Shown: positions 40,730 through 62,460, counted from the first letter of the stretch. The stretch is 64,000 nucleotides of DNA from Cystobasidiomycetes sp. EMM_F5 (GCA_051047955.1 JBPGPT010000010.1:124001-188000); one strand, 5' to 3'. Program-made: numbers and translations. Notes: generated by a model from the sequence alone, not told the origin.

Positions 40730-43037
40730 TCACGCTGTCGACTTGAATGACCTAGGGTCACGAGGGAACAGACTTGCCCATCTAATGTTGGGTAAGCCCA
40801 GGAAGAACATGACTATGCGCTCTAGACCCAACCCAGCACCGGCATGGGGTGGGGCGGCCCATCTGAATGCATCAAGGTATTCTTGCATCTCTTCGGGCTT
40901 GATGCCGACAGCCTTCATCCGCTCTTCCAGTAGTGGCGCATTGTGCACACGTTGAGCACCTGACAAGATCTCCTCTCCTCTCATAAAGAAGTCGTAGGAA
41001 TTTGAGAGGGTCTGCGCGCGTCAATGGTCATCAGCTCAACCATTCTTGACAGTACAAAGCACTCTGCATTGCACTTACAGGATCAGCAGCATCTGGCATT
41101 GTATAGAAGGGCCTGAGAGCCAACGGGAACTTGTCGAGTATGTAATAGTCCGTCTGATGCTTCGCTTTGACGAGCCGGCCAAGTCGCTTTTCATTCTCGG
41201 TATTAATGTCTGCATCATCTTCGATCTCTACGCCGTCGTCGCGTAGCATTTTCAACCCTTCGCGATACGTAAGAACAACCGTCTTGTCGGGAAAGGTGAA
41301 ATTTTGGCTCGGAAATTGTGTGCGAACCTGCTCAATCTCTTTGCTGTACCGCTCCTGTAGGCCATGGAAAACGAAGCGGAGCAGTCCATCAAGGAGCTCC
41401 ATTACTTCGTGATAATGCTCCTCGAACGCCATCTCTAAATCAAGACCCATAAACTCTGTCATATGACGGTGAGTGCTGAGTATGAATAATTTAGCACGCT
41501 TGAATAGACATGTGAGGCCGACGGCACTTACTTCGAATCCTCAGCGCGGAAGACTGGTGCGATCTCGTACACTTTATCAAAGTCGGCGGATATGCACATC
41601 TGCTTGGCAAGTTGCGGGGATTGCGCCAAGAAAGCAGGACCTGTAACACCAAAACATCCTTTAGCCCGATAGTTGGCTTCGCAGAGCGCTGAAAACTTAC
41701 GCTTGAAATAGTCTACCTTGAAAACTGACGCACCGCTCTCGGTAGCGGCACCCTGCAGTTTCGGCGTGTGGATTTCGAAAAATCCTTGCTTCTCCAGATA
41801 TTCGCGGAACAGTAGACCGACGCCGCCTTGTATCCGGAATATTGCACGGTTTGTGGCGGTCTAACGACAGCCAATGTAAGCTGAGGCTAAAGATCGCTTC
41901 CGAAGGCGACATACTCTCAAGTCAAATGTTCTAGATTGCAATCGAGTATTGAGCTCGACACGACTGTATGTCGGGTCCTGTATGAAGGTGCGTGCATCAG
42001 TACTGATGTATTGGTGAGCTGTCAGAGCATCGGTATGTCTACCTTCTGGAAGTCTGCCTCTGGTCGTCCGGCATCCTCGAGCACAAATGGCAATTGTATA
42101 GGCGCTTCGGATATTGTGTGAATCTATGGCCTAAAATCAGCCAGAGATTACGCTCACTGCGCAATTATACGCACCTTTGACACCAGGATTTCAGCATCCT
42201 TCACGCTGCACGATTTTATCGGTTCTGGACTTGCTTGCACAGTTCCTTCTACAAGAACTATGCTCTCATTTGTGATGCCCTGCGCCCATTTGACCATTTG
42301 TTTCGAGATTGTCTCTGGTTTCTGCGATAGCAAGCCTTGAATGGTATTGCCGCCAGATTGACGGAACGTGAAGAATACCATCTTTGCTCCTTGTGCACGG
42401 GAATTGTGCACTCTTGCGCGGAACAGTATGCTTTTGCCTGCTTCGGACGCCGAAAGTGTCGATATGTTGGTCCTGGTGAGACCTGCGAAACGATCGCTCA
42501 GTAATGTGTATCCGTCGCATGCTACAGTCGTGGCGCACCAGGACGTTCCTGTGACTGATGCAGAGGCAATGCGCCGTAATTTTGCGATGCATAGTCCTGA
42601 GACAACAAATTAGACATACTCAAGCACGACTGGGATACATTGGAAGTTACGTACCACATCTGCCGCCTCTTTGGCAGCCTTGGCAGCAGCTTCCTTGGCT
42701 TCGCGTTCTTGTCGTTTCCGTTCCTTCTCAGCCTCTTTGGCTTGCTTTTTCAGTTCGCTCTTGGACGGGCCTTTCTTCTCGCTATCGTCTTGCACTTGTC
42801 TGCACAGTGTTATTGGTACGTAAGAAGAGGTTACAGACCAGTACAACCCGGATCCAACAGAAGGTTCGCCGAATAATGCGATGCAAACAATTTCCATTGA
42901 GTCACAGGTTGACAGGAACTCTTGCAATAAACTCACGGTTCATCCGCGCCGCCATGGGTCACTCTTGCATCAGTCGGCGCATCAGCCTGCTTAGCCTGTT
43001 CCACTTGGCCTGCCGGCGTTGGCTCTCCTGCTGTCAT
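40730..43037 (-). CDS. DPS1: Aspartyl-tRNA synthetase (cytosolic type); in-frame upstream ATGs at 43187 and 43241
   Basis: OB-fold [90 protein letters not shown]. Confidence 0.95.
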
Positions 43038-49777: not shown

Positions 49778-51533
49778 CTAGTCAAACACAAGACTAGCAG
49801 CCATATCTCTGAAATAGGCACGAAGTTACAAGTTGATACAGGTCAAGCCAAGTCAACGGAGTGCGCTTACACGTTTCCGTCTGCAGTATCCAGTAAGCGA
49901 ATAGCCTCCTCCCGCGGCACGCCCATGCCTGTCAAGGCCGTAATTTTGTCTTCGGACCATCGGGACTCTTCAGGCAATCGACTTGCATCACGCTGAGCAG
50001 AGGCCCCCGTGTTTGTCCCTCCGAGCGTTTGACCTGTTCCAGCAAAGCTCTGAGTTCCGCCAGACTTGTTCGCCATCGACCGGCCAATAGCCTCATTTGA
50101 AGCTGATGCAGCAGCTCCTAACGCAGCCCCGTGCGACGCTTGCTCGGCTGGTAGCTTGATATTTCCGTTGCTATGCATTTGATTCAGCCATGTCTCACTG
50201 AGAATTAATGTACATCAACTTACGCATCTGTTTCCACATCGTCCTCGAGAGCGTTCCTCGGTAGCTCGTGCTCGTCGAGAAAGCGTACGCTTCGGCCTTG
50301 TATCCGTAAGCAGTTCTTTTCTAGATCTATACACGCTTGATATCGCTTGAGCATGTCAAGACCGAATAGGAGATCGACGCCTTTGCCCTGTTGTGATGGC
50401 AATCAGCTTCGTCTGACGGTAGCCTGCCAAAAACCCTATACTGACTTCCATGACTGTGAAAGCGACTGGAAGAAAGAGATCTTGGCCCACCCGGATCTGG
50501 GCGGAGTGGATGCGACCCAGTATTTTAGCTGTCCCGACGCCGCGAGCAATGCCTGCGAAACGAGTATCTAATAACCGCATGATACTGGAAGCTGTCTTAG
50601 CCTGGTATCAAATCTGTAGAATTACTTTCAAACTCACCCACACGACGCAGCCAGATCTGGACTGACTGAAAAGTAACAAGACATGAGCCATGGCATGATA
50701 GACCGGCTACATCCGGACTTACTGATTGTCGCTTGAGCGCCGGAATCGACGAACGCTTTGACATCGTGACCGTTCACTTGTACATTGACGTACAGCATCT
50801 GCACCCTTCCGAAACTCTCTGGCGAAAATTCCATTGCGTGCTCCATATTCTCGTAGACTTGCTCTTGCCGAATCAACTCTTCAATCTTCTGCTGAGCAGC
50901 GACGTCGAATGGATCGGCCATGAGCAATTCCTCCATGTGTCTCTTCTCATCCTGCATTCGTCTCTCCGTCTCTCGACGAGCGTTGTACAGCTGTTGAAAC
51001 TTGGCAGGATCGTTTTGTGCTGCATCCGCGAATTCAGGCTCTGCTTCTCGCAGCCTTTGCAGCAGCTCTGGGTTGGATAAGAGAGATGCTCGCGCCATTT
51101 CTACACTAGGATCGATAATGTTGTTGTTGGCAGACGCCATTTGATTGTTGGATGCTGGACCACCCTGTTGCAGATTGCTCGTGGATGGACTTCGAAGGTT
51201 TTGCAGGAGGAGAACATCATCGTCTTTGACGTTGTATGCCCTCAGCGTCTTTTTCGGATCAAGTAGGGCTGTTCCGTCAAGCACGATGGATTGGTCAGGA
51301 ATCGGAATATCAGACTGCAACAGGATCTAATTCAGCGACAAACGTCAAGATCAGACTTCACGCGCTCACTTCTGCTTCCAGCAATGCCATGATGTCGCCC
51401 AATTCCTGAGAGCATGCCGCTGTCAGCAGCTGTCTACGAGGCCACGTCGTCGTCATCCGGGTGCATCACACACCATGTCTGCGTCAACGTCGACGCTGTA
51501 AGCCTGGTCATCTGTCGCAAAAGTGAGACGCAT
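49778..51533 (-). CDS. DDI1: DNA-damage-inducible protein Ddi1 (UBL, retroviral-like aspartyl protease, UBA)
   Basis: UBL N-terminus, [69 protein letters not shown] ending [12 protein letters not shown]. Confidence 0.95.
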
Positions 51534-52044: not shown

Positions 52045-53011
52045 TCAGGGTCGCGGCGCGTTTTCCGAAAGTTGCTGTTTCTTTTCTTGCGCCTCTGCTT
52101 CAGCACGACTGAAGACATCTCCAATCGCTTTGGCATACGCGGAGCACTCTCGGCTGTGAACCTCCCTCCAGTCTATGGCTTGATGAGCAGACGAGCAGTA
52201 GAACCTGACCTTGCATCTACTCAAAAGCGTCGTCACGACGTACAGTGTCAGCACAGCTCCAGCTCCCGACATCTCCTCTACTTACCGAGAGCATCGCTTC
52301 ATATTCTCTCTTACGCACATACATATCGGACATATGTCAATGTAGTCTCTGGTAGACATGGTCTCGAGTTTGATTACTCCGGGTACTTCGCGGATGAAAC
52401 GCTGGATAACGGTACACGAAGGATCAATTAGGCGCAATTTCACTGCACATCGTCCTAATGGGAAGCTCACCCCAGTTACTAGATGCGCCGATGCTAGTCG
52501 CCCAAGTAGGGCAAAGTCCTGGATGTGTTCTAGCATGGCTTCCGGCGTAGTGACCACTAGAGGCAGTTTCGGGGCTCCTTCTGGAACGACGCCTGATAGC
52601 TTACCACTCTCCAAGAGAGCTTCCAAGAAAGGGCTGATGGTTTCTCGCTCGTACTCGCTCAAAGTGAACCAGCCATACGTTTCTTGAAAATATCGTGCAA
52701 TCAAATAGTAAGGTCGCGGGATCTGCGGTCCTATCTTGTCTCCCCATATCTTCAACAAGACCGACCGCACAGCAATGATATCTCCCTGGGCTTGCAGCGT
52801 TTTATAGCCCTCAGCGTCGCCTTGCAGAGCTTCTAGAGCGGGGAGGGCTTTGGAGAGTAGGCGAGGCCCCGCAATATCTGCGATACACAACGTCAGATAA
52901 GTGTATTCCAGCCAAAATAGTGTTGCAATGCTGACCAGGCCGTCCAGGGAATGAATGGTATTGGCGCAACGCGGCGAGTTCTTGCCCGTTCACGTTGATC
53001 TGGTAGAACAT
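52045..53011 (-). CDS. Unknown-domain + MYND zinc-finger protein, tandem copy A
   Basis: MFYQINV...PRPYYLIARYFQETYGWFTLSEYERETISPFLEALL...CPICMCVRENMKRCSR/CKVRFYCSSAHQAIDWREVHSREC; 3 introns. Confidence 0.85.
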
Positions 53012-53325
53012 GTCGTGAGCAGACTGGCGGAGAGATCTCAAACAAAAACGATAATATCGCTAGTTTGAACAGAGTCAAGACGCGCCAGTACAGCATGTAC
53101 TGCATCGGAGTAATCGCCCGGAAAATTTCGTCAAGGCTGTCGGACGGCTGAACACGGAGTGAATGGCCCAGAGGGCCCAAGCTCACGGACTCTCGTGCTT
53201 GAGCACCCTTATGCTCTAGGAACTTGTGGCCTGATTTCACAGCTTATCACAAACAGCGTCTACAGATTACATTCCGCAAGTTTCACGCAGCCCTTCCGCA
53301 CAACGAGCGAGCCGCTACTTCAGAC

Positions 53326-54251
53326 TCAAACTTTGGCTTTGGAGGCTGCTTCAGCACGGCTGATTGCATCAGCGATAATTCTGACGAGTTCAGGACACTC
53401 CTCCTTGTGGCTCTGCTTCCAGTCCATTGCCTGACAACCAGACGAGCAGTAGAAAGTAACTTTGCACCTGGCCACGCGTCATATTGTCAGCGAGGCGCTG
53501 TATCACCTGCTCGTCCACCAAATATCTTACCTTGCACAGCGCTTGAGGTTTCGGAATGTATGAGAGCAAAATCGACACCAATCTCGTAAATGTTCCATCC
53601 TGACGTTTTCGAGTGACATCAAGTGCGGGGCTAGACTGATGATGTGCTGCAGGAGTAGTAATCATTCAGCATTCTACATTCGATGGCGGACAATGCCTTA
53701 CTTTGAGAATGAGATGGGTCGCCGCCAACCTCGCGACGAGAGGTAGATCGGTTATGTGGGCCATCAGAAACTCTGGGGTGGTTACCAGTAAAGGAAGTCC
53801 AGGCGCGCCCGCTGGTACGACCTCCGTCAAATTTCCACCCTTGAGCAGCGCTTCCAGCATGGGGCTGATAGTCTCGCGTTCATACTCGGTGAGCGTTGAC
53901 CAGCCATACGGTTGTTGGAAATATCGTGCAATCAGGTAGTATGGGCGAGGGACGAAAGGCTTCAGGATCTCCTGAAATACTCTAAGGAGTACAGATCGCA
54001 TCTCAACGAGAGCTGCCTGATTTTCCAGACTTTTGTATAGATCATCATTGCCCAGAAGGGGTTCGACAGCGGAAATAATGTGCACAATGCCAAAAGGCCC
54101 GGGAGCAGCTATCACCGATATCAGCATATGCAGCTACACACGCAACCATTTGCAGACAGGAAAGTCGTCACTCACCATGTTCCTCGCGGACAAGCTGATA
54201 TCGTCGGAGTTCCTCAATCTCGTAGGCGCATACGTTGACTTGATAGAACAT
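53326..54251 (-). CDS. Unknown-domain + MYND zinc-finger protein, tandem copy B
   Basis: MFYQVNV...PRPYYLIARYFQQPYGWSTLTEYERETISPMLEALL...CRFCSHTFRNLKRCAR/CKVTFYCSSGCQAMDWKQSHKEEC; 3 introns. Confidence 0.85.
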
Positions 54252-54528
54252 CGCGCAAAGACGAGCGACAGTGAACCACTGTACTAAAGGATGCGCGCCA
54301 TGCAGAAACTAACGGCAGTACGAAGTGCAAAGGAGCGTAAAGTACCTGCACATCGGCCAGGTCCCGCTTGTAGCAAACGTAGTATGTAATTTCAGACAGC
54401 TAAAGATGAATGCAGGGCAGCATGATAATGTGATCCGCCATCTATTCTCCCCACAAGCTTTCAGCCCTCCCTCCCACACAATGCTCTACAGCAGGAAGAA
54501 AGATATCATTTATTGCGAATATGCCCAA

Positions 54529-55434
54529 TTAAGCATTCGAGCGTGCCTCAGCAGCTGTGATGGCATCTCCGATTGCTTTGGCGAATGTGGAACACTCAAG
54601 TTTGTGACCGTCCTTCCAATCCTCTGCTTGACAGACAGACGAACAATAGAAGGCAACTTTGCACCTTTGTATTTGGATTGAAAATCAACCAAATGCCGTG
54701 TCGGTCAGGCCACCATCCTACCTCGCACAGCGCTTGAGATCTTTGGCCTGCTTGATGCAGTTGCGACACAGGTCGAGCGAGTCCCTCATTATAAAAGTCT
54801 GGAGCGTGTACAGCCCAGGAAGCTGGCTGACGAAGCGCTGCAAAGAGGTATGGGCTTCAGAGGGCTACTGAAAGGAGAAAGAAGAGACATCGCGTACTCC
54901 GACGAGCAGATGCGCAGCAGCAAGTCTCGCTACCAGGGGTGTGTCGGAGATGTGGGTCATCAACGTATCCGAGTCAGTCACGACCAAGGGAAGGTCAGGC
55001 GCGCCGTCTGGGACGGTGCCCGTAAGTGTTCCGTTGTTCAGTAGCGCCTCAAGCATGGGACTGATGGTCTCGCGTTCATAGTCGCTGAGCATCTGCCAAC
55101 CATACGGTTGCTGAAAATAGCGTGCAATCAGGTAGTACGGACGAGGAACACTGCGGCACACGCTATTGCCATAAATCTTCAGAAGTGAGGATCGCATTGC
55201 AATCAACGCTCCTTGCTTGTCCAACGCCTTGTACCGATGGTCGTCACCTTGAAGAGATTCGACGACAGCGATGACTTTCGACAGCCCACTGTTAGCTGAA
55301 GGGTCTATATGCACTGCTTTAGACTCCCTCAGCCACAATACAAGAATTTCATGCGTACCAGGGTTCCTAGGGGAGAGCTGAAACTTTCGGAGCGCTTCGA
55401 ATTCGTCGCTGGTAGCGTTGACTTGATAGAACAT
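54529..55434 (-). CDS. Unknown-domain + MYND zinc-finger protein, tandem copy C
   Basis: MFYQVNA...PRPYYLIARYFQQPYGWQMLSDYERETISPMLEALL...CRNCIKQAKDLKRCAR/CKVAFYCSSVCQAEDWKDGHKLEC; 3 introns. Confidence 0.85.
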
Positions 55435-55880
55435 GGAGCTGCGGAAGATGAGTAGTCTGTGCGTAGGAAGTAAAGGGCCGCCATGCAGAGTCTTGTCTGG
55501 CGTCTGGCGTGGCACCTGTCACACTCGCTTTGCGACTGTGGCGGCTGTCCGACGTCCGTACTCTACCCAACGAGGCGTACTTGACGCCATGGCGGATGGC
55601 ACGAAAGATTACTACATTCTCGACGAGCATTCATTGCATTCAGTATTCGCACTTCTATACAATGTTTAGCGAGCCGGTTGTGCGGAGACAACAGGAACAT
55701 CTTCCTATTGTCTACCTAGTCTACTGGCAGGGAACACAACAAGGACATTGCATGTCCCCTCTCATCTATCTGCAGGGAGGAGATGTGCAGACTGTTGGAA
55801 TTAGCGTGTGCACATCTACCGAAAGTCATTTTTGGCTGTCATTCTCGATGGTGCGGCTGCAACAAGCACACGCCCGTATC

Positions 55881-56851
55881 TCATGCATCCGTTGCTGCTT
55901 TGTTCGCCGTTTGCTGTTTCTCTGGCTCCATTGATGCAATAGCATTGCCTGCACATGTTGCGTACTTCTGACATTGCTGCTTGTGCACATGCTTCCAGTT
56001 ACTGGCTTGACATTTGCGGGAGCAGTAGAAGACAACCTTGCATCTGTGAGAGCAGAGCATAAAGTCAGGAAGTTATTACACAGAGTGATTTGAATTCATT
56101 GACAGTCTCGCCAACGTACCCAGCGCATCGTTTCAGCTGCGTCGAGCTGGCACCACATTCACAGCACCGGTCGCGCATAGAAATGATTGGCGTTTCCTCC
56201 AGTCTGAGCACTAACGAGACGGACTGGGCATAACGCTAAAGCGCATGTCAGTAGGCGCTAGCAATGACCGCACATGACCATGCTCACTATCAAACTGAAT
56301 TGACTGGCCAACAGTCTGCTGACGAGCAAAGTGTCCGGAATGAGTTCCAACATCTTTTGCTGAACGGTGGGGAATGAGACATCCAAAGACGATCGAAGCG
56401 GAGTGGATCTTGCTAATCTTTCGTCTGCGAACAAAGCTTCCAGAAAGGGGCTTATCGCTTCTCGCTCGTGCTCTTGCAGGGTTGCCCAGCCGAAGACTTG
56501 CTGATAGTAGCGAGCCAACAGGTAATACACCAGCGGCACATTGGCGTCTTTTACGGTGTTATGAATGCTGGAGAGAATGCTTCTCATTTGGATGATTGCT
56601 GCCTGGTGTTTGAGAAGCTTGGAGCGCTCGTCATCTCCTTGGAAGGACTTGATCAAAGGAACGAGATCCTCGTCGTCCAGCTTGGGCTCGTTCAGCACGT
56701 CTGCAAACCGTATCCATCCACCTATCGAGGAGAGTCACAAGTTTTTCACTGGAGGCCATCACGCCTACATACCACATGGACGTTCACGAGCCTCAGCGTA
56801 CGCCTGCAGCGTTTTCAGCTCAACTGCCGTTGCATTCACCTGGTAAAACAT
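55881..56851 (-). CDS. Unknown-domain + MYND zinc-finger protein, tandem copy D
   Basis: MFYQVNA...PLVYYLLARYYQQVFGWATLQEHEREAISPFLEALF...CCECGASSTQLKRCAG/CKVVFYCSRKCQASNWKHVHKQQC; 3 introns. Confidence 0.85.
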
Positions 56852-57264
56852 AGCCGAGAGATAGGGAGAAGTGAGAAGAGAGGAAAGTAGTGAGCGGAGA
56901 GTGCACGAGCTTGAGAAGATCGTGATCGAGCGTGGCTAGGGAGATACCCGCACGGAAGGTCTGTGCGCACTCAAGTAAATTCAGTGCAGGCATCTGACCA
57001 ATATTTGCCGATGGCGCTCCACACGTCTCAGTCACCTCTACTATGCTTAGCATGCGGACTCTTGCTTATGCTCGGAGCAATGTCAAGCGCGTGCGCAGTG
57101 TGATATTTGGCAAGGTATACGGGACATACAGTCCGAGAACGTCGCTTCCTGCCACTGCCATTGCACATTCACCGACAGTCCGCAAATGACTGCCAATCTT
57201 CAATGTTGTGCTCAGCGTACGAGCTTCTGAGTTGTTGTTGCAAAGAGCGTTTTCTCGGAGACTA

Positions 57265-58216
57265 CTATTCTTCGGTCGCCAGCTTTCTCCGTTCCTCCGC
57301 ACGTCCGATGGCGTCACCCGCATGTTTCGCATAGACAGGACATGCAGTCTTGTGATCTACGGTCCAATCGCGTGCTTGACATGCAGACGAGCAATAGAAT
57401 GCGACCTTACAGCTGTAAGTCGTCCATGGCGAGCGACGTCAGCCTGACTTACGGCAGAGGGAAGTAATCGAACTTGCCGTCCACACCGCTTCAGCTTTGC
57501 CGATTTCTTCAAACATCCACCACACAAGTCGCGCATGTCCGTAACCGGGTACGACTTGAACGTGTAGGTGGGGTGGCCCTGACGAACCTGCCGCTACGAG
57601 ATCAAAGTTAGGCTTAGATGAAAGTACATCAGAAACGGAGTTACAGTAAGCTTACTACAAAGTGGAAATGTGCAGCCACGAGTCTGCTTGCGAGCGGAAG
57701 GTCGGCGACGTGCTCCAGCAACATCTGGGCTGTATCGGACAAGGGAACCGATTGGGAAGTGCTCGCTTGCGGCTTCCGGCTGTCGCAAAGCCTCTCCAAC
57801 AGAGCCTCCAGCATTGGGCTGACGGCTGCTCTCTCACAATCATTGAGCGACTTCCAGCCGAACACCTCTTGGTAGTACCGTGCGATCACATAGTAGGCAC
57901 GGTGTACTTGAGCGTCCACTTTGTCGGGATAACAGCACAGAACAACATTGCGCATTGTAACAAGTGCAGCTTGTACCGAATCTTCTTTGTAGCGATCAAG
58001 TTTGCCTTTAGCAGACTGTATAAGATCGAAGGTTTCCTGATCCAGCTGAGCAGTTGGGTTTTGGGATGAATTCGCAGGTCCACCTACAGCAATGCAGCTC
58101 AGAAAATTGTGTTTGACATAATACGACAACGGACACGAACCTAGCCGGATTTCCAACTGGATGACTTCTTGATAGGCCAGCATTTCCTGCGCTGTTGCAT
58201 CAGGCTGATAGAACAT
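57265..58216 (-). CDS. Unknown-domain + MYND zinc-finger protein, tandem copy E
   Basis: MFYQPDA...HRAYYVIARYYQEVFGWKSLNDCERAAVSPMLEALL...CGGCLKKSAKLKRCGR/CKVAFYCSSACQARDWTVDHKTAC; last intron needs a GC donor (57413-57477). Confidence 0.82.
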
Positions 58217-58654: not shown

Positions 58655-59593
58655 TTACGCCAACAGCTGCTGATGATCGCTGATCTCAAAACTCATGCTC
58701 TGAGTAGTCTTGAGATACATCTTCTGAATCTCTGCCATATTCTTCCGATTCGATGCCGTAGAAGCGATCTCGGCTTGCGTCCCCACGCCATTCGAGACGT
58801 TCAGAACTTCTTGCGTGAATTGCCGAACGTTGTCTCGTATCCGGTCGATGTCAAAATGCGCACGCGCGACGGGTACGCTGACGACTCCTCGAGCTGCTTC
58901 GGTTTTGCCTCCTCCCCGCTTCTTCAGAGCTGGCGCTTCCATTGCCTTCCAGTCCAACCCTCCCCGTGCATCCTTCAGAGCTTGTGCTATGTCATCTGTC
59001 ACTGTACCACGCTTAGCTGATGGCATCAAGCCTTTCGGCCCAAGTATCCGCGGTAACTGCGACCGCGAGATTGTAGAAAGCAGTTCCGGCGTGGATATAA
59101 TCTTGGTCGGAGATATGTTTGCAGATATCAACTATGGCGGTGGAAAGTCTTCAGCACGTAGTTACTGCGCATCGTTTATCCATGGGTAAAGAGTACCCAC
59201 CTCATCGATGAGTTCCTTGCCGCCGACGATATCGGCACCCTCTCGGCGGGCTTCGTCTGCCTTTTCTCCTTCTGCAAACACCAATATGACTTCCTTCTTC
59301 TTCGAATTACTCGCATCGTGTGTCAGGAAACACCTCCCTCTGAGCGAGTTGATATTCACGCTCGTCGCCAGTTTCGACACCAGAGTGAGCTCGTACGCCG
59401 AGAAAGCCTTGTCGGCAGAGAGCGCCTTCAGACACTTGACTGCTTCATCGAGAGAGACCACGTTGGGCCCGATGACTGGAGGCAATCGTTTCGCTTTCTT
59501 GCCAGCGGATTTTAGCCTGCCGGAGCTGCTGGAAGCGCATCGAATGAATGTATTTCGAGTGATTGGCAGAACAGACGTTGATGCGACTTGCAT
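58655..59593 (-). CDS. MRPL1: Mitochondrial ribosomal protein uL1m
   Basis: ILVFAEGEKADEARREGADIVGGKELIDEV, LPRILGPKGLMPSAKRGTVTDD; presequence-like N-terminus; 1 intron. Confidence 0.9.
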
Positions 59594-59728
59594 GATTGGA
59601 AGTGTGGTGTAGTCCAAGTCGTCGAAGGAGCAAATGTCTGGCGCAAGTGTTCGCAGGAGTGATCAATAATAATTTATGCCATTGCACGACGATGCAGTCT
59701 TGGAAGCTGCCAATAACCTGAAACAAGT

Positions 59729-60742
59729 ATGGACGCTGTTATTGCTCTACCGCCGATGCCCGTCGAGGCTGGTCCACCGGCCGATGCTGTGATGCAGGCC
59801 GTTTCAGCTCCAGCTGGCGAAGTATCCGCCGACCAAGATGCTGCTCCAGCTGTTCCGGAGCCTACGCCTGTCGAAACGCTCTACGTCAGCAATCTGAACG
59901 AGAAGATTACACTCAAAGTCATGAAGCAAACTCTGCGGAATCTCTTCCGCCAGTACGGCGTGGTGCTGGATGTGGTCGCTCATCGCAATATCCGGATGCG
60001 AGGGCAAGCTTTCATTGCAATGACAGACAGAAGCGCAGCTGCAAGAGCTGTGAAAGAAGTTAAAGGCTTCCCTCTGTACGGCAAGCCCATTAGTATCGCT
60101 TTCGCAAGGACACCTTCAGACGCAGTTGTCAAGCGAAAAACGCCAGCGCTTCTGGATGTGCATGTTCAAGAACGCAAGAAGACGAAGAGTGTGTATAGAA
60201 AGCTGGTTCGCATAAAGTCGTTGACAGTGGTTGCAATCCAGGAATCGCTAGGCGGAAGAATCCGTTACGGGCCAAGTCTGCAGCAGCAAAGTATGCAGCC
60301 AAAGTCGGTGAGTGCTCGTCTTGTATATCATTTATAATCTTGTTTGAAAAGATATCCTCCTATATCGCAGCTGCCGCATCAGGCGACGGCACAGGCGCAG
60401 CAGTCGCACCAAAACGCAACATTGTACAAATGCCCGACGAATACCTTCCGCCAAACAAGATTCTTTTCGTACAAAATCTACCCGACGCAACCACCAAAGA
60501 TCAACTCGAAGAGCTGTTCAAGACCTATCCCAATTTGCACGACATTCGAACTATTCCAGGCAGAAAAGGAATCGCTTTCGTGGAATTTGCAGACGAATCA
60601 TCTTCTACGACCGCACGCGAGGCTTTGCATAATTACAAGATTGACGATGATCACAAGATGAAGGTGAGACATGTATTGCTTGCAACATTTGTCACGGCAC
60701 GCTGACGCTCATTACTCGCAGGTCACGTTTGCAAAGCAATGA
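59729..60742 (+). CDS. U1A/U2B'' snRNP protein (two RRMs)
   Basis: TLYVSNLNEK...LDVVAHRNIRMRGQAF...GFPLYGKPISIAFART; second RRM QMPDEYLPPNKILFVQNLP...IAFVEF...MK/VTFAKQ*. Confidence 0.93.
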
Positions 60743-61207: not shown

Positions 61208-62460
61208 ATGGCTCACAAGTATGATTTCCTAGCAATGGGCAACCCGTGAGCTTATACAAAAGTGCTTGCAAGTAGCTGTTGACATGGTTGATGCCACAGC
61301 CTGCTCGACATGCAAGTGTCGAATGGAGAGGAACTGCTCGAAAAGTACAATTTGAAGGCCAACGATGCCATTTTGGCTGAGGGCAAGCAGAAAGAAATGT
61401 AAGAAAGAGTTTATGTATGTGAAGTGCTCGCTGACATGTTTCTACACGCAGTTACAACGATCTCGAACAAAATTACAAATTAACATATGTCGCTGGAGGT
61501 GCTGCGCAGAACGCGGCCAGAGCTGCTCAGGTCAGTCTTTCAGCTCTCTCTGTACATCGATGTACAAAGCTGAGCGCTTGCACAGTACGTTCTGCCAGCC
61601 GACTCTACCGCGTACCTTGGTTGCGTAGGAAAGGATGCGTTAGCCGATCAGCTACGAGCAGCGAACGAGAAGGAGGGGCTTTATTCAGCATATCAAATCG
61701 ACGAGTCTGCGCCGACTGGTGCTTGCGCAGTCATCCTTACAGGCCTGCATCGCTCCTTATGCACAGAGCTAGGTGCTGCCGAGAAATTCAACAAGTCCCA
61801 TCTTGAAAAGCCAGAAATCAAGGAGCTCATCAGCAATGCCAAATTCTTCTATCTCGGAGGATTTTTCTTGACGCACGGCATCGAATCGGCAATGATCCTG
61901 GCGAAGCACGCTCATGACAATGGCAAGGTGTGCAAAAGATCTGTTATAACAGTGTGAACAGAAGTACTGACAATTGCGGTACTCTACAGACTTTCGCCAT
62001 GAACATCTCCGCACCCTTCATCGCCCAGTTCTTCAAGAGTCAGGTTGATCAGATTCTACCTTACGTGGATGTCCTCATCGGCAACGAATCTGAGGCCGAA
62101 GCCTACGCACAGTCTCACGAGTGGGGCACAACCGATTTGTCAGAGATCGCAAAGAAGCTTGCAGCCTCGCCCAAGGAGAACTCCGGCAAACCGCGGACGG
62201 TTGTCATCACACACGGTGCTGAATCTACTATCGTAGCGACCGGTAGCGGTTCACACAAAGTTTACGATGTCGAATCTATCCCCAATGACAAGATTGTCGA
62301 CACGAATGGTGCAGGCGATGCGTTTGCTGGTGGTTTCTGCGGTGCTATTGTCTCTGGCAAATCCGTCGACGAAGCAGTAGAAGCTGGCCATAAAATGGGC
62401 GCTATGTGTGTCGGGCAAGTAGGCCCTGCCTTCAAGTGGCCGAAGGTACAGATCCTGTAG
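61208..62460 (+). CDS. ADO1: Adenosine kinase (PfkB family)
   Basis: AMGNP/LLDM, VAGGAAQNAAR, PTGACAV, NISAPFI, LIGNESEA, IVDTNGAGDAFAGGF; 4 introns. Confidence 0.96.

Follow-up and report, generated by a model that had tools for sequence, protein, structure and literature searches.

Five tandem genes for small MYND-finger proteins with an orphan N-terminal domain in a cystobasidiomycete yeast

A stretch of 64,000 nucleotides (nt) from the genome of Cystobasidiomycetes sp. EMM_F5 (GCA_051047955.1 JBPGPT010000010.1:124001-188000), called the window below, carries at 52045-58216, on the minus strand, five genes arranged head-to-tail (g1 to g5, by rising coordinate). Their products, of 241-263 amino acids (aa), are two-domain proteins in which an N-terminal domain, predicted to be helical, is followed by a canonical MYND zinc finger. 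The array was first pointed out by a model that read the window from its letters alone (the sequence-only reading). The host is a phyllosphere yeast isolated from Magnolia grandiflora, with a genome of 18.6 Mb, and none of 27 Cystobasidiomycetes genomes is that of a sister taxon (PMC12697161).

Five genes, deposited as one

The gene models, which are defined by coordinates alone, are the following:

52045..53011, minus strand: g1, 256 aa; exons 53011-52936, 52877-52471, 52401-52286 and 52216-52045; open spliced frame, all introns GT-AG
53326..54251, minus strand: g2, 246 aa; exons 54251-54176, 54108-53702, 53646-53531 and 53467-53326
54529..55434, minus strand: g3, 241 aa; exons 55434-55359, 55295-54898, 54837-54722 and 54664-54529
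55881..56851, minus strand: g4, 263 aa; exons 56851-56773, 56721-56288, 56235-56120 and 56043-55881
57265..58216, minus strand: g5, 255 aa; exons 58216-58141, 58083-57656, 57593-57478 and 57412-57265; intron 3 with a GC donor

Stop-to-stop frames on the minus strand between 51.9 and 58.4 kb show the same set of open pieces repeated five times. The starts that code for MFYQ lie at 53011, 54251, 55434, 56851 and 58216, and the low coordinates of the stops are 52045, 53326, 54529, 55881 and 57265. Successive starts are 1183-1417 bases apart, and the copies are separated by spacers of 277-446 nt. When spliced, g1 to g5 give open frames of 256, 246, 241, 263 (or 256) and 255 aa, the second value for g4 arising from another in-frame acceptor of intron 1, with which exon 2 begins at 56700; either acceptor is possible. 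Each copy has three introns of 51-76 nt, at equivalent positions and in phases 1/0/2, and the third intron splits the motif KRCxx/CKV in all five. The introns are GT-AG in 14 of 15 cases and GC-AG in one (g5 intron 3), and the donor has G at +5 in all 15. Every MFYQ ATG is the first in its frame, with an in-frame stop 51-87 nt upstream, and the identity of the stop codon varies among the copies. A tblastn search with the five proteins gave 51 matches in the window, none of them outside the array. The sequence-only reading had proposed five head-to-tail genes with these stops, a period of about 1.2-1.4 kb, an MFYQ start in each copy, and three equivalent introns, the last splitting KRCxx/CKV. 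The spliced models reproduce all of these features, the stop coordinates included.

In GenBank the locus is deposited as one protein of 1053 aa, KAL7007649.1 (EMMF5_002725 = P0009). The deposited model, taken at face value, describes a single long gene in which a unit is repeated five times. It joins exons 1-2 of g5, g4 and g3 to exons 1-3 of g2, spliced as in our g2 model, and exons 1-3 of g1; part of g5 exon 3 is read out of frame. A single gene would have to skip four in-frame stops and at least four MYND exons. In every unit, an in-frame stop precedes the first ATG, and a separate stop codon closes the frame. The 1053-aa model, moreover, ends inside a MYND finger and has no Pfam match to zf-MYND. 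The genome was annotated with funannotate; RNA data are not mentioned, and the model was apparently made without transcript evidence (PMC12697161). Five separate genes are favored since they account far better for the starts, the stops and the conserved intron phases. One long gene is thus extremely improbable, and the 1053-aa model is an ab initio fusion artefact.

A similar fate has befallen a sixth paralogue, dispersed elsewhere in the EMM_F5 genome, KAL7008152.1 (EMMF5_002334), to which the raw open reading frame (ORF) P0007 corresponds. The 240-aa GenBank model of EMMF5_002334 (P0011) lacks the finger half that is seen in P0007, and ends in unrelated sequence. With the array fused and the sixth paralogue mis-spliced, a survey of EMM_F5 that relies on domains will miss the MYND finger.

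A public run (X1), whose kind could only be guessed, contains one contig of 322 nt that is identical to the window at 55166-55486 and colinear with it across g3 intron 1. The contig could be DNA, and has no bearing on expression. Its identity to the window implies that another data set contains sequence of this organism or of one nearly identical to it.

The MYND finger and the N-terminal domain

The last exon of each gene carries the C-terminal part of a MYND finger. The fingers, each split by intron 3 (shown by the coordinates of the whole, with Pfam scores for the last exon), lie as follows:

52144..52332, minus strand: MYND of g1, aa 185-224; PF01753 28.3 bits
53395..53577, minus strand: MYND of g2, aa 185-224; PF01753 30.9 bits
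54592..54768, minus strand: MYND of g3, aa 182-221; PF01753 32.4 bits
55971..56166, minus strand: MYND of g4, aa 195-234; PF01753 28.5 bits
57340..57524, minus strand: MYND of g5, aa 192-231; PF01753 30.3 bits

The Pfam scan was made with the last exons alone, as unspliced window sequence. All five match zf-MYND (PF01753), with scores of 28.3-32.4 bits where the gathering cut-off is 22.7. The aligned part is profile positions 17-39 of 39, only the second half of the finger, because intron 3 splits it. The spliced products all fit the 40-residue pattern C-x2-C-x9-C-x2-C-x4-YC-x3-[CH]Q-x3-W-x3-H-x3-C, and so have the eight zinc ligands in the C4-C2HC order with canonical spacing, g5 only when its GC donor is used. 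A C-terminal MYND pattern had been claimed in the sequence-only reading, and both the pattern and the Pfam score bear it out in each copy. The best PDB sequence match of the g3 half-finger is to residues 64-89 of the SMYD2 MYND (E 8e-5). All five fingers keep both the Gln and the Trp of Q-x3-W. The corresponding residues of DEAF-1, Gln529 and Trp533, are described as important for binding of the co-repressor peptide (SMRT/N-CoR PPPLI) in ETO and DEAF-1 (PMC3555993, in excerpt). The short tail that follows the finger is probably helical.

The N-terminal part comprises about 160-180 aa, of which exon 2 codes for a core of 132-144 aa:

52471..52877, minus strand: g1 exon 2, N-domain core; alignment A1, no Pfam match
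53702..54108, minus strand: g2 exon 2, N-domain core; alignment, and an all-helical AlphaFold2 (AF2) model with a predicted local distance difference test (pLDDT) of 59
54898..55295, minus strand: g3 exon 2, N-domain core; alignment and AF2 model
56288..56721, minus strand: g4 exon 2, N-domain core; alignment
57656..58083, minus strand: g5 exon 2, N-domain core; alignment

In alignment A1 the core has 26 columns that are invariant among the five copies, including YY-x2-ARY-x-Q-x3-GW and ER-x3-SP-x-LEAL. The N-domain has no Pfam match at E<=1, and at E<=10 the eight families matched by seven N-terminal sequences each occur in only one of the seven. SET is not matched at E<=10 in these seven sequences, nor at E<=1 in P0001 and P0002, and PDCD2_C is not among the Pfam matches of the N-terminal parts. 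A search of PDB sequences with the N-domain profile gave seven chains (PmoC and others) with E of 0.1-1.5, short matches of the kind expected by chance. No transmembrane segment is indicated, the maximum Kyte-Doolittle mean over 19 residues being 0.89-1.45, and the proteins are predicted to be soluble.

The two AF2 models, made with seven-sequence alignments, are all-helical, with 7-8 helices each. Foldseek with model 1 found no PDB match at E<=0.001 among 117 at E<=10. Wide (exhaustive) VIA fold searches gave best Z values of 6.4 and 5.4 for the two models, none reaching the Z of 8 below which VIA places the noise for helical models; the matches at Z 6.4 are generic three-helix bundles over residues 1-73. 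In both models the second half of the core resembles SAM domains (3bs5_B, 3bs7_B, 9k1l_B, 9rpv_N1; Z 4.7-5.2, 61-73 residues aligned), a resemblance that we treat as a lead and not as a finding since its Z is below that noise level. Two look-ups in the ESM Atlas had low best scores, one of 0.89 to WHD_HA2 helicase fragments (recognition 2076, under the mark of 2300) and one of 0.86 to bacterial hypothetical proteins, and were not used as leads because they are mutually inconsistent. A homodimer prediction for the g3 exon-2 domain scored 0.00 against a mark of 0.32; the partner fold being itself uncertain, this weighs neither way. The region had been called unrecognised, and the proteins free of transmembrane segments and of a SET domain. 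The first description holds in every library tried (Pfam, PDB sequence and fold searches) and the second in the Kyte-Doolittle and Pfam scans. A match to SMYD or PDCD2, named beforehand as a result that would speak against the sequence-only reading, was looked for in the Pfam scans and not found.

Two features of the N-terminal part deserve separate mention. Met-Phe-Tyr-Gln is invariant at the N-terminus of all seven family members, P0006 (see below) and P0011 included, whereas identity over the remainder of exon 1 is only about 40%. A Met followed by a bulky hydrophobic residue is the kind of start that is read by NatC-type acetylation and by N-degron pathways. The second is a proline-rich loop of low pLDDT in exon 2, at about aa 120-135, VPxGAPxLPL(V/L)VT, which is conserved among g1-g3, whereas g4, g5 and the dispersed paralogues do not conserve it. 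Within the loop, P-x-L-P resembles MYND ligand motifs and is not equal to them; the loop could be a pseudo-ligand.

The two domains together raise the possibility that the proteins are nuclear adaptors of the co-repressor type, like ETO, BS69 and DEAF-1, in which the MYND would recruit a co-repressor or a transcription factor with a proline motif and the N-domain would oligomerise. The peptide-contact residues Gln and Trp are conserved, as this would require, and a combination of oligomeriser and MYND is known from BS69 (PMC4742278, in excerpt); SAM domains, whose weak likeness recurs in both models, are oligomerisation modules. However, that likeness is within helical noise and no SAM family appears among the Pfam matches of the N-domain at E<=10. 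Pfam scans found no DNA- or chromatin-binding domain, and no basic nuclear-localisation stretch is obvious by eye, no tool having been used. A co-repressor role of this kind is therefore rather unlikely.

Age, distribution and surroundings of the array

The copies have diverged deeply. Their pairwise aa identity is 35-56%, g1-g3 being closest, and by region the mean pairwise identity is 0.55 in the MYND, 0.42 in the N-domain core, 0.34 in the tail and 0.23 in the linker that precedes the MYND. Identity of exons (0.62-0.67) is slightly above that of shuffled sequence (0.55-0.59), and that of introns and of upstream and downstream DNA is no higher than shuffled. With NG86 over the full length, synonymous divergence (dS) is saturated and undefined in 7 of 10 pairs, and the ratio dN/dS (omega) is 0.18-0.25 in the other three; by region, 4 of 10 pairs are computable in each, with omega 0.14-0.28. 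Intact frames after deep divergence, together with computable dN/dS well below 1, fit purifying selection. In a tree of the seven core domains, the five array members part from the two dispersed paralogues (support 86/94), and no order of duplication is claimed since three of its four inner branches are unresolved. As judged from these comparisons, the array is old and maintained, and is not rapidly turning over or diversifying. The sequence-only reading was right to hold that all frames are intact despite heavy divergence, and its view that the family is kept by selection fits these values; a fast-turning array does not agree with duplications so old that dS is saturated in most pairs.

Functionless duplicates, decaying or drifting neutrally, would explain the changed zinc ligand of g1 and the non-canonical donor of g5, and expression of the genes is not evidenced. 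On the other hand, none of the five frames is broken, the 15 splice sites are all intact and 39 of 40 zinc ligands are retained, in a setting where non-coding DNA has fallen to shuffle level, and omega by NG86 is <0.3 wherever it is computable. Neutral decay is, accordingly, scarcely credible.

Relatives are few. When a profile built from exon 2 of the five copies was compared with 1.84 billion representative proteins, six matched at E<=0.001: three unspliced ORFs of the locus, P0006, P0007 and one bacterial repeat protein. P0006 and P0007 are true relatives. Both begin with MFYQ, and P0007 runs into the first half of the MYND finger, ending at the equivalent intron position; P0006 is known from a single assembly contig. 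The bacterial protein (P0008), 1087 aa of near-identical repeats of about 115 aa, reaches E 3e-5 through eight short stretches and was judged a compositional artefact. This was the profile search that the sequence-only reading had suggested, and the ORFs of the locus and the two relatives are its only true matches. With the g3 ORF, unspliced (P0001), as query, a word-index search of proteins gave 180 candidates and none at E<=0.001; with alignment A2 and E<=1 it gave only P0006, P0003, P0007 and P0005. A scan of JGI metagenome contigs with A2 gave 29 pattern matches, none of which was confirmed. As a control, a fragment of the neighboring Ddi1 gene retrieves 219 proteins, many of them from named Pucciniomycotina, Ustilaginomycotina, Agaricomycotina and Mucoromycota, which indicates that annotated fungal proteomes are present in the collection. 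The best Ddi1 identity there is only 56%, which indicates that this yeast has no close relative in it. The apparent orphan status is therefore due in part to the isolation of the organism, and in part to the high E-value bar of a very large library. The N-domain appears lineage-restricted as far as the searched libraries reach. The family has at least six members in the 18.6-Mb genome, five of them in one 6-kb block.

The genes around the array, all of which have introns, are the following:

41034-42609, minus strand: class II (D/K/N) tRNA synthetase
50637-51326, minus strand: Ddi1-type aspartyl protease with an HDD domain
58658-59662, minus strand: ribosomal L1-family protein, mitochondrial-type
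59717-60702, plus strand: two-RRM protein
61574-62457, plus strand: pfkB sugar kinase

GC content is flat across the region, and no k-mer (k = 7-9) is shared by at least four of the five copies within 300 nt upstream. The flanks are housekeeping genes, and there is no sign of an island or of a system of several genes. The sequence-only reading had ranked the array as its best candidate for an undescribed system; with such neighbors (Ddi1, ribosomal L1, RRM, pfkB, tRNA synthetase) and no shared upstream motif, that suggestion finds nothing to build on.

A diversified family of sensors for nonself recognition or defence would be expected to show tandem multiplication, strong divergence of one domain and restriction to one lineage, and the array has the first two and apparently the third. 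The duplications, however, are ancient and look purified rather than diversifying, and the window has neither pseudogenised nor extra copies. Pfam scans found no NACHT, TIR, HET or other death or effector domain, and the surroundings are housekeeping. We regard a defence role as very improbable.

A proposed adaptor role, and comparison with known systems

On balance, and with no great assurance, we favor the view that the five old, separate tandem genes encode paralogous intracellular protein-protein adaptors, in which a MYND docking module is combined with a helical specificity domain and which are held under purifying selection. Each paralogue would be anchored by its MYND finger to a proline-rich motif in a partner common to all, and the more diverged helical domain, with the poorly conserved linker, would give a second, paralogue-specific contact, either with a client or by self-association. 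Docking on a proline motif is proposed because the Gln and Trp of CQxxxW, which contact the peptide in ETO, DEAF-1 and BS69 (PPPLI / PxLxP), are kept. In BS69, a self-associating coiled coil beside the MYND pairs two fingers and strengthens PxLxP binding (PMC4742278, in excerpt). An intracellular adaptor is a reasonable, unproven reading of a MYND finger. The sequence-only reading had also arrived at diversified intracellular adaptors: purifying selection, the MYND and the orphan domain fit that part of it, and its further suggestions of ubiquitination and of nonself or defence recognition are without support. The hub that the adaptors serve might be a ubiquitin ligase, a co-repressor or another protein.

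One hub with a fungal precedent is a ubiquitin ligase (E3). In Saccharomyces cerevisiae, the E3 Ubr2 has an adaptor of the MYND type, Mub1 (PMC12505455 and PMC3567142, both in excerpt), and by analogy the array proteins might be substrate receptors or adaptors, the MYND or the N-domain binding the E3 and the diverged part picking substrates. A conserved docking finger joined to a second domain that has diverged among paralogues fits the logic of receptors, and the Met-Phe-Tyr-Gln start of all seven members provides a bulky hydrophobic N-terminus. Against this, the N-domain profile has no match outside the family in a library rich in fungal proteomes (Mub1 was not directly compared), and no E3 gene lies beside the array, the neighbor Ddi1 being a conserved housekeeping gene. 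The Mub1-Ubr2 analogy is in our judgement distinctly unlikely to hold.

A bolder version of the adaptor proposal would make the MFYQ-domain (about 170 aa) a new fold or family restricted to a Microsporomycetaceae-like lineage and a variable module for recognising clients, the array proteins being substrate receptors on one proline-rich hub (such as an E3 or a co-repressor). The loop VPxGAPxLPL of g1-g3 might then also act as a built-in pseudo-ligand through which paralogues bind one another's fingers. This is a long shot.

Several observations weigh against the adaptors as we picture them. The role is proposed with neither a partner nor a localisation signal to guide it. The relatives of named source all come from one organism, so that conservation across species is lacking. 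The whole MYND was not scored as one piece, the PF01753 match being to its second half, and the sixth zinc ligand of g1 is His in place of Cys (HQ for CQ), although this His probably still serves as a ligand. In g5, a rare GC donor (intron 3, 57478-57412) is needed to retain zinc ligand 4; an in-frame GT-AG alternative, 57473-57406, removes that ligand and breaks the finger, and g5 may either make a finger-less isoform or be en route to losing the finger. The splice sites would be those given here if open frames and conservation among paralogues, which stand in for transcripts, are sound guides. Confidence in the AF2 models is low (pLDDT 59.4 with a predicted template modelling score, pTM, of 0.49, and pLDDT 57.4 with pTM 0.46), for which reason the N-domain fold is no more than a prediction. 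Omega is unreliable since dS is saturated, and one YN00 estimate, for the MYND and tail of g4-g5 (64 codons), is 0.84.

Among solved structures, the nearest in sequence to the finger is the MYND of human SMYD2 (PDB 5kjk, 3s7b), which has the same C4-C2HC ligand pattern and spacing. Unlike the SMYD proteins, those of the array have no SET or TPR-like C-terminal domain, and their finger is C-terminal and not inserted in an enzyme. They differ from PDCD2 in having no PDCD2_C domain beside the MYND (Pfam). For proteins of the ZMYND10/ZMYND19 type, no PDB chain was found beyond chance level at E<=10, and none in the fold searches, which used low-confidence models. With BS69/ZMYND11, DEAF-1 and ETO the array proteins share the C-terminal MYND, the Gln/Trp pair and a preceding helical region (here predicted), but they are without PHD/Bromo/PWWP, SAND or NHR domains, and their N-domain has no detectable sequence relation to those proteins. 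The likeness to Mub1 would lie in the role of adaptor, which the excerpts cited above describe for that fungal MYND protein. At E<=0.001, a high bar, the N-domain profile matched no outside fungal protein, Mub1/SamB included in so far as a search without direct alignment of Mub1 can tell. Mub1 is also much longer than the array proteins. The N-domain core, in its second half, weakly resembles the SAM domains of Hyphen/Aveugle (3bs7_B) and CNK2 (3bs5_B), at Z 4.7-5.2.

The number of zf-MYND genes varies widely among basidiomycetes, from 1 to 41 per genome in one table (PMC4469406). RING/MYND clusters are reported to be expanded in Polyporales (PMC8596683, in excerpt), and MYND proteins to be depleted in Aimea (PMC13082103, in excerpt). 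These reports, to the extent of the excerpts, count the finger only and do not describe the N-domain or a tandem array. MYND-finger genes are among the most expanding and contracting families in Basidiomycota. To our knowledge, almost no fungal MYND-finger gene has a known partner or role. What is new at the present locus is an orphan N-terminal domain joined to a known type of MYND adaptor, in what is a fairly ordinary lineage-specific family. Biologically, the surprise is modest: domains confined to one lineage and tandem arrays of great age are frequent in fungi, and EMM_F5 lacks a close relative with a sequenced genome. The family nevertheless offers a tractable entry point to these genes, since it is compact and two-domain, with five members in a single 6-kb block that can be deleted as a unit.

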